Shown here: positions 8,687-12,252 of the stretch, one piece after another | Layout of the letters: each line of letters begins with the position of its first letter | How positions within the stretch are numbered: position 1 is the stretch's first letter | UHGV virus genome: UHGV-0147800 | DNA from: a virus | Length of the DNA: 19,405 nt | Direction: 5' to 3' (one strand) | Position numbers and translations under genes: made by a program | Notes under the pieces: generated by a model | The model's input: only the letters and a program-made list of their open reading frames with translations | The model's database searches: none | Told to the model about the DNA's origin: nothing

Positions 8687-8819
8687 TCTTTGGGACTCCT
8701 GGCTGATTAAGTATGTCGATAAGGCGTTTCCATCCGTCACGTAATTTACGGGTGATTCGTTCAAGTAAAGATTCGGAAGGGCAGCCAGCAACAGGCCACC
8801 CTGCAATGGCATATTGCAT
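8679..8819 (-). CDS. cIII: CIII (FtsH inhibitor stabilising cII)
   Basis: ATG at 8817-8819 with SD AAGGAG. Product MQYAIAGWPVAGCPSESLLERITRKLRDGWKRLIDILNQPGVPKNG matches recalled lambda CIII over its whole length, though 46 aa versus about 54. Confidence 0.85.
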   Translation of the reverse strand: MQYAIAGWPVAGCPSESLLERITRKLRDGWKRLIDILNQPGVPKNG

Positions 8820-8880
8820 GGTGTGCTCCTTATTTATACATAACGAAAAACGCCTCGAGTGAAGCGTTATTGGTATGCAT

Positions 8881-8906
8881 ATAAAAAGGCCCTCACACTG
8901 GAGGGC
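8881..8906 (-). terminator. Putative intrinsic terminator (tL-like) between the 207-aa gene and cIII
   Basis: Minus strand reads GCCCTC-CAGTGT-GAGGGC followed by CTTTTTAT. Confidence 0.5.
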
Positions 8907-9040
8907 AAAGAAGATTTCCAATAATCAGAACAAGTCGGCTCCTGTTTGGTTACGAGCGACATTGCTCCGTGTATTCACTCGTTGGAATGAATACACAGTG
9001 CAGTGTTTATTCTGTTGTTTATGCCAAAAATAAAGGACGA

Positions 9041-9664
9041 TTATGCGACCTCGGAAGGAAGTCCAATCATCTTATTCAAATCTTCTACCCGTAAAGCAGG
9101 AAGTGCTGTACTTGCTTTATCTGCTTCTTTTGGTAGCAACTCTTTGCTTTCAGGCCAAACTTCAATAAGTCGCTTAACTGTTGTGACTGAGTTCAAAGCA
9201 GCCCATACATTTGATTCGATATCCTTTTTCTTGGCTTCAAGTTTTTGTTGCAATGCGCAGATTTCATCAAACCTTTTTGTTATTTCGTGTTCTGCGCTAA
9301 ACATGCATTTATCTTTGGTCGGAGTAGGGAGCAATATATCTTCGCCGTTGCCGTCTTTCCCATATGAATACCAGCCAACCCTTCTGCCAGATACAGTCAG
9401 ATAAATTGAAGTTGAACGGGCATCGCATGAGTAAAATGAACATCCCAGCTTTTCAAGTTCTTCGCTTATAGCCATTAACTTGGATGATAACTGATCCACT
9501 TCCTCAGTTTTCTTTTTACCGCCAAACGCAACAACTCTGGCGTCAAGTGCAAGCTGGTTCTTTAACTTTGTTACTTCTTCAAGCTCAGTGAAAACCCCAG
9601 ATTTAATTAAAGCGTTACGAGCGATTTTCTCTTTCATTCTCGTAGTTAAGCGGATTGATGACAT
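9041..9664 (-). CDS. Hypothetical protein (207 aa) in the ral/sieB-equivalent slot just downstream of N
   Basis: ATG at 9662-9664 preceded by GAGAGGAA. Product MSSIRLTTRMKEKIARNALIKSGVF... is soluble with no recognisable motif. The track ORF extends 20 codons further upstream without an RBS. Confidence 0.7.
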   Translation of the reverse strand: MSSIRLTTRMKEKIARNALIKSGVFTELEEVTKLKNQLALDARVVAFGGKKKTEEVDQLSSKLMAISEELEKLGCSFYSCDARSTSIYLTVSGRRVGWYSYGKDGNGEDILLPTPTKDKCMFSAEHEITKRFDEICALQQKLEAKKKDIESNVWAALNSVTTVKRLIEVWPESKELLPKEADKASTALPALRVEDLNKMIGLPSEVA

Positions 9665-9675
9665 ATTAATTCCTC

Positions 9676-9998
9676 TCAAATAAGTGGTTTGCTGCCTAAT
9701 TTCATTTTCTGGCGACCAACACAAGTCATCTTGCTGTCAGTTGTTTGGATTTCCGGTAGCCTGCCGCGTAAAGAGCTACATTTGGAAGACAAGTTGAGCC
9801 TTCATATTTTCTGGTCAACGTTGTCAGTGTTATTACTTCTGCTCTCATTGCTGGTTTGCGCTTGCATTGCAAGACCACTCGAGAGGGGGTTGGTCTGTGT
9901 AGCTTGTCGGAGCTAATCGCCTCCTGACTTTGCAGGTTTGCGCGACGAGCTCTACGACGAGAAGCTGAGGTGCCTTTAAATTCTGTTTTTCTGGACAT
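9676..9998 (-). pseudogene. N: N-like transcription antiterminator, apparently frameshifted
   Basis: ATG at 9996-9998 with SD GGGAGGAA. N-terminus MSRKTEFKGTSASRRRARRANLQSQ carries an arginine-rich motif like lambda N. The in-frame ORF stops at 9726, but the conserved N C-terminus (MTCVGRQKMKLGSKPLI, compare lambda GITCSGRQKIKGKSIPLI) is encoded in the -1 frame ending at TGA 9676-9678, just before the RBS of the next gene. Confidence 0.55.
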
Positions 9999-10096: not shown

Positions 10097-10142
10097 TGGC
10101 TTTTCAGCCACGTAGTCGAGAGTCGACGTTGTTTAAAGAGCC
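10097..10142 (-). promoter_or_regulatory. nutL (boxA plus boxB-like hairpin)
   Basis: Minus strand has boxA-like GGCTCTTTAAAC (plus 10131-10142), an intervening hairpin GTCGA-CTC-TCGAC, and a boxB-like hairpin TGGCT-GAAA-AGCCA (plus 10097-10110). Same three-part layout as downstream of cro. Confidence 0.5.
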
Positions 10143-10502: not shown

Positions 10503-11123
10503 TTAATGCTGGGGAGTGATTTTTTTGTTGTCTGTTGGCTGGGTATTTTGTGGCGGCGCTTGCAAAGTGGAAGGCTGTTGCAAAGGTGCGTGGTCTGACT
10601 TTAAAGCTGATACCAGCCCGGGAATCGCAACTATTACAGCGATAATGACACTAAAAATGGCTAATCGTATAGAAATACCCGACTGAACACCACTAATTGC
10701 GGTATTAACCCCTGTTATTTGTCCTTGAATTCCTTCGAATCTCCCATTAATTGCTTTTATATCGCCAGCAGCGCTATCCATCTTTCCATCGATCTTGGAC
10801 GATAGAGAGCTTATGGCTGCATTAAGTGATGCAAATTGGACATTAACGCTTTCACGAGATAGAGCCATGTCAGCCCTAATGGAGGAAGCAATAGACTCCA
10901 TCTCTGCTTTATTAGCAGCTAAGCGAGCATCAAGTTCCTCTCTGCTGATCGTTCCCACTTCTTCCTCCGTTTGTGGCGGTTTTATGTAATTATTTTGCAC
11001 CTTGGTGGGAGAATTATCAAATTCAGCCTCAAAATCAGAACCGCCAACAACCTTCAACCTCCGGCTTTCAGATATGTTGGTGTCTTGCTTTCCATGATTA
11101 TTTAAATTACTGTCGTCACTCAT
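10503..11123 (-). CDS. Hypothetical coiled-coil protein with a single C-proximal transmembrane helix (206 aa)
   Basis: ATG at 11121-11123 overlapping the stop of the upstream gene (ATGA). Polar N-terminus, long heptad-like region, hydrophobic helix LAIFSVIIAVIVAIPGLVSAL, then a Pro/Gln-rich tail. AT-rich compared with cI. Confidence 0.75.
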   Translation of the reverse strand: MSDDSNLNNHGKQDTNISESRRLKVVGGSDFEAEFDNSPTKVQNNYIKPPQTEEEVGTISREELDARLAANKAEMESIASSIRADMALSRESVNVQFASLNAAISSLSSKIDGKMDSAAGDIKAINGRFEGIQGQITGVNTAISGVQSGISIRLAIFSVIIAVIVAIPGLVSALKSDHAPLQQPSTLQAPPQNTQPTDNKKITPQH

Positions 11124-11554
11124 AATAGCTCTACGGTGAAAAATGATTCATTTTTATGAAGTTCATTTTTAGGGTCTTCATTATCTTGCAATATCCCTAT
11201 AACACTATACAGCCCTTTAGCTGGGACCCTAATTTCTTTCAATGTTACTATTACCTGTCCGCCAACCCCTGTTTCAAAATGGCTATCTTTCGTATCGATG
11301 AAAAGTGAAACTGATTCCGAAGAGCCGTCAGGGAATTGAATTTCCTCACCTTTTTTTATAATTAGGTGCGCGGGGATTACCATAATACCCAAATTATATC
11401 TTGAATTTGGTTTCAACCCGATCATACCAACCCTGAAATCAATCGATAGCCGCGCAGGAAATTCATTGCATGTAAAATTAAGCGTCGGTTGGTTGGGTTC
11501 TTCGCTGCTATCAAATGGGGTTATAAAAGATATTCTTTCTAAATTAAGTGCCAT
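11120..11554 (-). CDS. Hypothetical soluble protein (144 aa), first gene after cI
   Basis: ATG at 11552-11554 with strong SD (GCAGGAGAATTT-ATG). An alternative in-frame ATG at 11606-11608 overlaps the cI stop and would give 162 aa. No recognisable motif. Confidence 0.7.
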   Translation of the reverse strand: MALNLERISFITPFDSSEEPNQPTLNFTCNEFPARLSIDFRVGMIGLKPNSRYNLGIMVIPAHLIIKKGEEIQFPDGSSESVSLFIDTKDSHFETGVGGQVIVTLKEIRVPAKGLYSVIGILQDNEDPKNELHKNESFFTVELL

Positions 11555-11604
11555 AAATTCTCCTGCATCGCTGTATGCTCTACGAGCATCTCTGCGACCA
11601 TCCA

Positions 11605-12252
11605 TCATCCAAACGTCTCTTCAGGCCACTGAGCCTTAACTACCTTGCCTATGATGCGGCATGTGTGATCGCAGTCCAGGGTTCTGTATGCCGGATTCAA
11701 TGGAACCAAGTAACTAACCCCTGCATCCTTCTCATACTTCTTGAACGTTGCCTCTGAATCACCATTTGCAGAAGCCACGCAGAAATCCCCAGACTCTACC
11801 GGCTCGGCCGGATCAACGAGTATCAGCATACCCTCAGGAAAACTCGGCCTTACGCCCTGTGGCGCAGTCATAGAATGGCCTTTCACCTCAAGCCAGAAAG
11901 CTTTTTCGCTGGCTTTTGTGGTCGTTGGGACCCATGCCTTTGCATCGCTTGCTGTGTAGCTTCCAACCTCCGAAAACGGCCCGGCCTGCACTGAAGAAAA
12001 TAACGGGTACTCATATTGGCGAAATACAGCGTCTGAATCCTCGCCAAACATTATTTTTGCCGGAGATACGCCGAGTGCCGCCCCAAGAACCAGCGCGTCA
12101 TCCGCGCTAACCTTTCTTGTTCCTAACTCGTAGTTCCCCAGGCGTGAAGGCGCAGCCCAGCCGCAAAGCTTGGCCAATTGAGCCTGGCTAAGTCCTTTAG
12201 CTTCTCTAAGGGACTTGATCCTTTCCCCGATAATTTCATGCATCGTTTTCAT
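11605..12252 (-). CDS. cI: CI-type prophage repressor (HTH plus LexA-like S24 autocleavage domain)
   Basis: 215-aa ORF with N-terminal HTH ([22 protein letters not shown]) and C-terminal S24 peptidase features (Ala-Gly site in VQAGPF, GHSM serine motif, conserved lysine in IGKVVKAQW). Divergent from cro across an operator region. Confidence 0.9.

Follow-up and report, generated by a model that had tools for sequence, protein, structure and literature searches.

Which gene does this lambdoid prophage carry immediately downstream of N, where phage lambda has sieB and ral, and what might its product do? The window, a 19,405-nt stretch of DNA, contains E. coli torS and, next to it, a lambdoid prophage that extends from int/xis to Q. 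The gene in question lies on the minus strand (9041..9664) and encodes 207 amino acids plus a stop codon, running from an ATG (9664-9662) to a TAA (9043-9041). A Shine-Dalgarno sequence, GAGAGGA (9671-9677), is located 6 nt 5' of this ATG and within the 61-nt spacer that we read between the gene and N on the same strand (9665..9725). Coordinates, ribosome binding site and gap thus agree with the original prediction of a 207-aa ORF directly downstream of N with a strong ribosome binding site. The record of phage Kapi1 differs in that translation is annotated from a TTG, yielding 227 aa. We rejected this start (at 9724 in the window, 60 nt upstream of the ATG), because homologues start at the ATG that carries the Shine-Dalgarno sequence: among those from Cronobacter, Klebsiella, Pantoea, Erwinia, Providencia and Serratia, every one starts at the equivalent ATG and none at the upstream TTG. 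The ORF is a real gene and not a chance reading frame; 66 of 67 distinct nucleotide alleles, drawn from 81 loci, are intact, and the mean dN/dS across them is ∼0.28. The protein has a GRAVY value of -0.34, a pI of 8.2, 31 acidic (Asp and Glu) versus 33 basic (Lys and Arg) residues, and no transmembrane or hydrophobic segment was detected along its 207 residues, in line with the soluble protein that had been predicted.

A homology search had been suggested for this protein, which was thought to resemble neither Ral and SieB nor any recognizable family. The first part of this description stands, but the second does not. The sequence matches Pfam family PF18757 (Nmad5; E = 4.2e-71, 239.7 bits with a cut-off of 27) over residues 4-203 and model positions 1-206 of 206, and phrog_1965 (1.1e-81) over positions 2-207 of 208, whereas the profiles of Ral and SieB are recovered by hhalign with probabilities of only 0.1 and 0.3%, respectively. 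A search of NCBIfam with the protein returned no match. The family is listed in InterPro as IPR040835, its name stands for "nucleotide modification associated domain 5," and copies with 100% identity bear the RefSeq title "Nmad5 family putative nucleotide modification protein." Judged by its sequence, the protein is a full-length, stand-alone Nmad5 member that is already catalogued, and hence no new discovery.

The gene is found in 211 of 5,426 complete E. coli genomes, with identical copies in CE10, AR_0017 and further strains. Copies with at least 95% identity are present in 77 phage records, which include Kapi1, mEp235, HK542, HK244, the PhiR12 phages and many Stx1a/Stx2a prophages. The lambdoid orthologues (Kapi1_018 of vB_EcoP_Kapi1 and those of mEp235, HK542, HK244, PhiR12 and the Stx1a/Stx2a prophages) are 95-100% identical at the nucleotide level and likewise follow N at the start of the pL operon; apart from the start codon annotated in Kapi1 and the IS-split copies described below, they show no substantial difference. 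A profile search (E ≤ 1e-3) recovered 2,293 Nmad5 cluster representatives at 50% identity, and the best 150 of these are nearly all stand-alone proteins of 190-220 aa; a profile scan of genome contigs with our alignment A1 located four loci only. We found no domain fusions, neither among 122 matches, all of which contain PF18757 only, nor among the best 150 of the 2,293 representatives.

Comparison with lambda defines the insertion site. Window positions 8584-8878 align to lambda 33228-33522 (97.6% identity) and positions 8879-9036 to lambda 33923-34080, starting 7 nt past the ral stop codon (in lambda coordinates, ral ends at 34087 and N at 35037). The Nmad5 cassette, which is delimited by the N stop codon and by a point 7 nt beyond the position of the lambda ral stop, therefore substitutes lambda 34081-35036, that is sieB, orf28 and ral, and occupies the same interval as these genes, bounded on one side by the N stop codon and on the other by the tL2-region sequence located upstream of ea10/cIII. 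An Nmad5-family gene is thus almost certainly what fills the ral/sieB slot, and the slot that had been proposed from gene order turns out to be exact to the base. The ea10 gene is also absent from the window at the lambda-equivalent site.

Phages that share the N allele (95-97% nucleotide identity) hold different genes at this position, namely orf20/orf19/ea10 in VT2-Sakai and sieB/ral/ea10 in PhiR11_1, which identifies the slot as a variable accessory site. Among 82 loci, homology upstream of the cassette most often breaks at ∼9730, corresponding to the N stop codon (48 of the 82), and downstream breaks fall at ∼9005, ∼8880 or ∼8800-8840, with 26 of the 82 stopping at ∼8880. The cassette is partnered with cI alleles that vary from 33 to 100% in identity, with N alleles that vary from 36 to 100%, and with differing recombination modules, and its G+C content is 40.7% compared with 47.2% for the prophage. 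Many Stx2a prophages carry the gene interrupted near codon 35 by an IS3-family element of 1.3 kb. We verified this in one prophage (L105), where the element is bounded by 25-bp inverted repeats and contains HTH_Tnp_1 and rve ORFs; the 123 match places in the 77 phage records imply ∼46 IS-split records, of which this is the one verified. An nmad5 deletion phage has been built in a Dhillonvirus and is viable enough for a spot test (PMC11846954). Together with the IS-split copies, this phage argues that Nmad5 is dispensable. The accessory nature of the gene is further indicated by the replacement of a lambda segment, the alternative cargo, the mixed cI and N alleles, the sharp boundaries and the low G+C content.

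The surrounding pL region contains the elements expected of a lambdoid antitermination operon. A boxA-like nutL element, GCTCTTTAAACAA (10129..10141, minus strand), is a unique exact match with 0 expected by chance, and we take it to be boxA from its resemblance to the rrn/lambdoid consensus. It is followed by the unique boxB hairpin GGCUGAAAAGCC (10098..10109, minus strand) with a GAAAA loop, which in the minimum-free-energy structure forms a 5-bp stem and a 4-nt loop, and by the gene for the 90-aa N antiterminator (9726..9998, minus strand; Pfam PF25694 N_peptide, 1e-31; phrog_271, 1e-24). In the 61-nt spacer between N and the Nmad5 gene, our terminator scan detected no terminator-like site, and the spacer folds no better than its shuffles (z = 0.17). 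Because this gap contains no intrinsic terminator, the Nmad5 gene would be co-transcribed with N, upstream of the first terminators, and the earlier description of it as the first gene expressed after N antitermination would need correction. Rho-dependent termination could also take place between the two genes. No internal promoter was flagged for the Nmad5 gene by a promoter scan that is insensitive, since pL also escaped it. Nmad5 would then be produced alongside N within the first minutes of infection or of induction, and a repressed prophage would not express it.

Downstream of the gene, a strong RNA hairpin with a 14-bp core stem but without a U tract (8963..9002, minus strand) is found 39 nt past the Nmad5 stop codon, in the stretch homologous to lambda 33923-34080. 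It has a minimum free energy of -25.3 kcal/mol (z = -5.0), and none of 200 shuffles is equally stable. The intrinsic terminator that had been predicted at 8881-8906 is recovered in our scan as a hairpin followed by a T run (8879..8906, minus strand), with a G+C-rich 6-bp stem (8906-8889, five G-C pairs) and the tail CTTTTTATAT; it is homologous to lambda sequence between ea10 and ral. A second terminator-like hairpin (8841..8868, minus strand; stem 8868-8849 with 8 pairs, tail TTTCGTTATG) is located just upstream of cIII. The cIII gene itself (8679..8819, minus strand) translates into 46 codons, with a premature stop compared with the 54 codons in lambda, and overlaps the cIII thermoregulator RNA (8774-8832, minus strand; Rfam RF01804, 88.5 bits). 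The order after cIII is kil, a 66-aa phrog_1723 protein, a Sak4-like ATPase, an SSB-like protein and Abc2.

With its placement in the exact sieB-ral interval, a variable slot, and its probable early expression from pL, Nmad5 could be an anti-restriction protein resembling Ral or Ocr/ArdA, or a SieB-like superinfection-exclusion protein. The hhalign comparisons with Ral and SieB given above speak against this, as does the lack of any match to Ral or other anti-restriction Pfam families at E ≤ 1, and none of the defence HMMs in PADLOC-DB matches the protein at E ≤ 1. Lambda Ral comprises 66 aa, compared with 207 aa for the soluble Nmad5 protein encoded on the pL strand. Since the protein is not acidic, as judged from its pI and its balance of acidic and basic residues, we rejected the notion that it is a DNA mimic such as Ocr or ArdA. 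Anti-restriction genes of the ArdA/KlcA type are common on conjugative plasmids. An analogy with the anti-restriction genes of plasmid leading regions was likewise discarded, given that Nmad5 is carried by just 6 of 72,556 plasmid records, all of them non-mobilizable. SieB is a membrane protein, and lambda sieB lies on the opposite strand, whereas the Nmad5 product has no membrane segment and its gene is found on the pL strand with no promoter of its own detected in the insensitive scan; unlike sieB, the gene should thus be silent in lysogens. We regard a function of the Ral, Ocr/ArdA or SieB type as highly unlikely.

To what extent do sequence conservation and structure define a function? In an alignment of 120 diverse members, Ile-14, Ala-18, Arg-43, Gly-48, Gly-93, Thr-162, Leu-166, Trp-170, Pro-171, Glu-172, Glu-175, Leu-176, Pro-178, Leu-196, Asn-197 and Gly-201 are nearly invariant. 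The C-terminal residues of this set, from Thr-162 to Gly-201, are at least 90% conserved and are all present in the window protein. They belong to a C-terminal module, T-x-K-[KR]-L-x3-W-P-E-x2-E-L-L-P ... L-P-A..V..L-N..I-G-L-P, and a second conserved segment, R-L-T...I..NA..K.G, is found at the N terminus; the window protein contains both. Information content averages 2.1 bits over residues 1-25, 2.7 bits over residues 159-180 and 2.2 bits over residues 193-207, compared with 1.1-1.5 bits in the middle of the protein. Among the conserved residues of the 120 members we could not recognize a catalytic constellation or a cofactor-binding motif.

An AF2 model calculated from the single sequence was poor (pLDDT 56.8) and was replaced by a model based on the 120-sequence alignment (pLDDT 92.4, pTM 0.83). 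The model begins with a short N-terminal strand and helices 8-22, 24-46 and 50-72, continues with a β-hairpin region (residues 83-121) and a long helix (127-158), and ends with two short helices (163-176) that a disordered linker (∼180-192) connects to a final helix (193-200). The variable part forms a helical and β-hairpin "stalk," and the conserved segments are N- and C-terminal. DSSP assigns positions 5 and 162 of the model as isolated bridge residues, and the two conserved ends could thus meet in the predicted structure. A comparison with solved structures returned no significant neighbor and no recognizable enzyme-like or DNA-binding fold, and structural matches in BFVD are confined to other uncharacterized Nmad5 proteins. 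Profile matches to PDB sequences, obtained with alignments A1 and A2, were dismissed as de novo or coiled-coil noise. The remote-homology and structure prediction that had been proposed for this protein thus yielded a family and a confident model, but no relative of solved fold. The lack of a catalytic constellation among the conserved residues and the lack of domain fusions lead us to infer that Nmad5 is not an enzyme.

This bears on the function implied by the family name, by which Nmad5 would be an enzyme or a scaffold in a nucleotide or DNA base-modification pathway. The name was reportedly given in 2013, by Iyer et al., for a contextual association with base-modification genes. In YuA and MW2, Nmad5 is found between gp14 and a dU hydroxymethylase, near DNA polymerase; gp14 is reportedly aGPT-Pplase1 (Iyer et al. 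2013 and the SN1 announcement). YuA gp15 contains the same Nmad5 domain (4.2e-56) in a stand-alone protein of ∼190 aa, of which tblastn with the window protein picks up the C-terminal 42% only. Its gene is surrounded by those for gp14, a kinase, a radical-SAM enzyme and the dU hydroxymethylase, and genes of this kind were not found in the window. Of further note for a modification pathway, two temperate phages have methyltransferase genes near Nmad5: Dam in L094, where the order is repressor - Nmad5 - PDDEXK nuclease - Enc34 ssDNA-binding protein - Dam, and MT-A70 in L103 (Nmad5 - MT-A70 ... SSB). Against such a pathway, none of the 31 window ORFs scanned with Pfam is a base-modification, methyltransferase or nucleotide-metabolism gene, in a 19.4-kb window that covers the prophage up to its late half. 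Lambdoid, N4-like, Dhillonvirus, eiAU and Jersey-like carriers contain no such cluster in the regions inspected, and most Nmad5 carriers are not known to have hypermodified DNA. The missing catalytic residue set and cofactor motif, and a helical fold with no enzyme-like neighbor, also argue against modification chemistry. In SN1/M6/YuA-like phages, Nmad5 has been listed as part of the thymidine-hypermodification cassette (PMC9476957). For the family member studied here, we consider a role in base modification very improbable.

Several neighborhoods instead point to phage DNA metabolism, and the main rival of the binding-type host-interaction function that we discuss below is an accessory role in replication, recombination or replication-coupled processing, in which Nmad5 would bind DNA or a component of the replisome or recombination machinery. 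In lytic phages, the gene order is thyA - Nmad5 - N4 gp42-like - primase - SSB in Pollock and Nmad5 - Rv2179c-like exonuclease - PolA in L102; the gene immediately precedes an O-like initiator in Athena1 and lies beside helicase/primase genes in eiAU, ECO1230-10 and SenTO17. The arrangements in YuA, MW2, L094 and L103 described above can be read in the same way. In the temperate phages L094 and L103 and in a Tardiphaga prophage, the early operon that lies downstream of the repressor has the gene in first place or close to it. In the window it is followed, after cIII and kil, by the Sak4-like ATPase, the SSB-like protein and Abc2, and Nmad5 could accordingly head the pL operon because pL encodes the recombination module. 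A motif that is nearly invariant across distant hosts would suit a universal target. This role is at odds with the dispensability of the gene, which follows from the IS-split copies and the deletion phage, and with the lack of a fixed partner: Sak4, RecT, Abc2/Erf-type and varied replication modules all co-occur with Nmad5. The lone copies that Dhillonvirus, L104 and Vibrio 1.093.O carry amid head or tail genes do not fit either, nor does a near-neutral protein in which no DNA-binding fold is recognized. We judge a role in DNA metabolism to be somewhat unlikely.

The only functional study mentioning Nmad5 that we found in the literature searched, by Yamashita et al. (2025), concerns Dhillonviruses, in which escape of SMS22/SMA8 from Tmn mapped to Nmad5 K296E/K216E and reversion brought back sensitivity (PMC11846954). 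Wild-type Dhillonvirus nmad5 could not be cloned, with apparent toxicity, and deletion of nmad5 gave no escape from Tmn (PMC11846954). The relation between Nmad5 and Tmn is thus indirect. The term "DNA modification enzyme" that these authors use for Nmad5 rests on the 2013 contextual prediction alone (PMC11846954). Searches of the literature for PF18757, IPR040835, phrog_1965, mEp235 and PhiR12 returned no further functional result.

The Dhillonvirus protein (SM_S22 CDS0006) shares with the window protein the full-length Pfam domain (1.2e-55) and the C-terminal motif. It differs in being 334 aa long, with the domain match starting at residue 81, compared with 207 aa in the window, and tblastn detects ∼31% identity in the C-terminal half only. 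Its gene belongs to a lytic siphovirus, where it is flanked by the head-morphogenesis and scaffold genes and encoded on the opposite strand. Escape from Tmn and cloning toxicity are phenotypes reported for the Dhillonviruses SMS22/SMA8. In an hhalign alignment, Trp-301 of SM_S22 is paired with Trp-170 of the window protein, by which Lys-296 of SM_S22 corresponds to Arg-165. This residue belongs to the T-x-K-[KR]-L-x3-WPE motif, the most conserved stretch of the family, and is Lys or Arg in at least 90% of close homologues. Arg-165 in the C-terminal module would thus be the counterpart of the residue whose charge reversal lets Dhillonviruses escape Tmn.

We tentatively read the lambdoid Nmad5 as a dispensable, non-enzymatic early accessory protein that acts by binding and possibly serves in host interaction or counter-defence. 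The link to host interaction comes from the cloning toxicity in Dhillonvirus and from the K296E escape mutation that aligns with Arg-165. The conserved terminal segments of Nmad5 would bind a conserved target, either of the host or associated with nucleic acid, and the protein would act early in host interaction or counter-defence rather than modulate type I restriction as Ral does or modify nucleotides as an enzyme. Some observations count against a role in host interaction. Several lytic phages embed Nmad5 among replication and nucleotide-metabolism genes, where a role in DNA metabolism fits equally well or better. The motifs are nearly invariant across phages of γ-, β- and α-proteobacteria, which suggests a very conserved target, unlike those of most inhibitors of fast-evolving defence proteins. 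Finally, the Dhillonvirus deletion, as noted, did not confer escape from Tmn. A counter-defence role against a phage-specific system is possible; that Nmad5 is an early family of new fold that blunts or evades phage-specific immunity, of the Tmn type or another form of abortive infection, with its conserved terminal segments engaging a conserved host component appears unlikely.

Should this be true, the lambdoid Nmad5 would stand in functionally for Ral/SieB at the first position of the pL operon, and the family would represent a new and very large counter-defence family across phages of Proteobacteria. Nmad5 is in any case a large family (∼2,300 clusters at 50% identity) with a confidently predicted fold that lacks a solved relative, and it is borne by medically relevant Stx prophages. 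Its "nucleotide modification" name probably misleads annotators, with most of the carriers that we inspected having no modification genes nearby. Lambdoid genetics being easy, the copy described here offers a convenient handle on the function of the family.

The Nmad5 gene of phage Kapi1 (Kapi1_018, L001 9941-10624) is annotated in its GenBank record as a 227-aa protein starting from a TTG codon. This codon is located 60 nt upstream of the ATG that defines the 207-aa protein (window 9724 versus 9664), and the longer reading frame overlaps the 3′ end of N. Both the alignment of homologues and the position of the Shine-Dalgarno sequence favor the ATG as the start of Nmad5.

In the Stx2a-converting phage Stx2_716 (L105; LC616058.1), the Nmad5 gene is broken at about codon 35 by an IS3-family element of 1,310 bp (L105 1196-2505), which is bordered by 25-bp terminal inverted repeats and whose ORFs correspond to HTH_Tnp_1 and rve. 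The insertion looks IS629-like, and match statistics suggest that ∼46 Stx2a phage records carry the same split gene. In certain siphoviruses and myoviruses, Nmad5 is a lone insert amid head or tail genes (L088 4296-5300, L104 6001-6582, and L107 3399-4118), in contrast to the early or replication contexts found in other phages. In Dhillonvirus, it is encoded on the opposite strand, and its coordinates appear to overlap those annotated for the scaffold gene.

A very stable RNA hairpin (window 8963-9002, minus strand), with a core stem of 14 bp and a folding energy of -25 kcal/mol (z = -5), is found 39 nt 3′ of the Nmad5 stop codon, within sequence homologous to the lambda region between ral and ea10. 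The hairpin lacks a U tract and matched no Rfam family; it may serve in RNA processing or stability, or belong to the tL2 terminator cluster. Lambda ea10 itself (lambda 33523-33922) is precisely missing at the window 8878/8879 junction: lambda 33228-33522 aligns with window 8584-8878, and lambda 33923-34080 with window 8879-9036. The neighboring cIII gene (window 8655-8819, minus strand) contains an in-frame stop at codon 47 (reading …QPGVPKNG*NTYGYPD*), and its predicted product is therefore 46 aa long, compared with 54 in lambda. The cIII thermoregulator RNA annotated by Rfam is intact.

The recombination module (window 6795-8588, minus strand) is not of the Red type. Its genes encode a 66-aa member of phrog_1723, a Sak4-like ATPase of phrog_2872, an SSB-like protein of phrog_743, and Abc2, a P22-type anti-RecBCD protein. 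The prophage integration site adjoins the host sensor kinase gene torS (window 50-2794, minus strand), with the lambda-type integrase and excisionase genes directly alongside (window 2889-4158, minus strand).

Immediately 3′ of cI, the position of lambda rexA/rexB is held by two overlapping genes (window 10503-11608, minus strand). They encode p162, a 162-aa phrog_5893 protein (window 11120-11608), and p206, a 206-aa coiled-coil protein of phrog_5820 with a C-terminal transmembrane segment (window 10503-11123). Neither protein returned a meaningful Pfam match or any PADLOC match. The pair is also present in HK542 (L078) and in locus L063, and represents a candidate exclusion or defense module expressed from the prophage.
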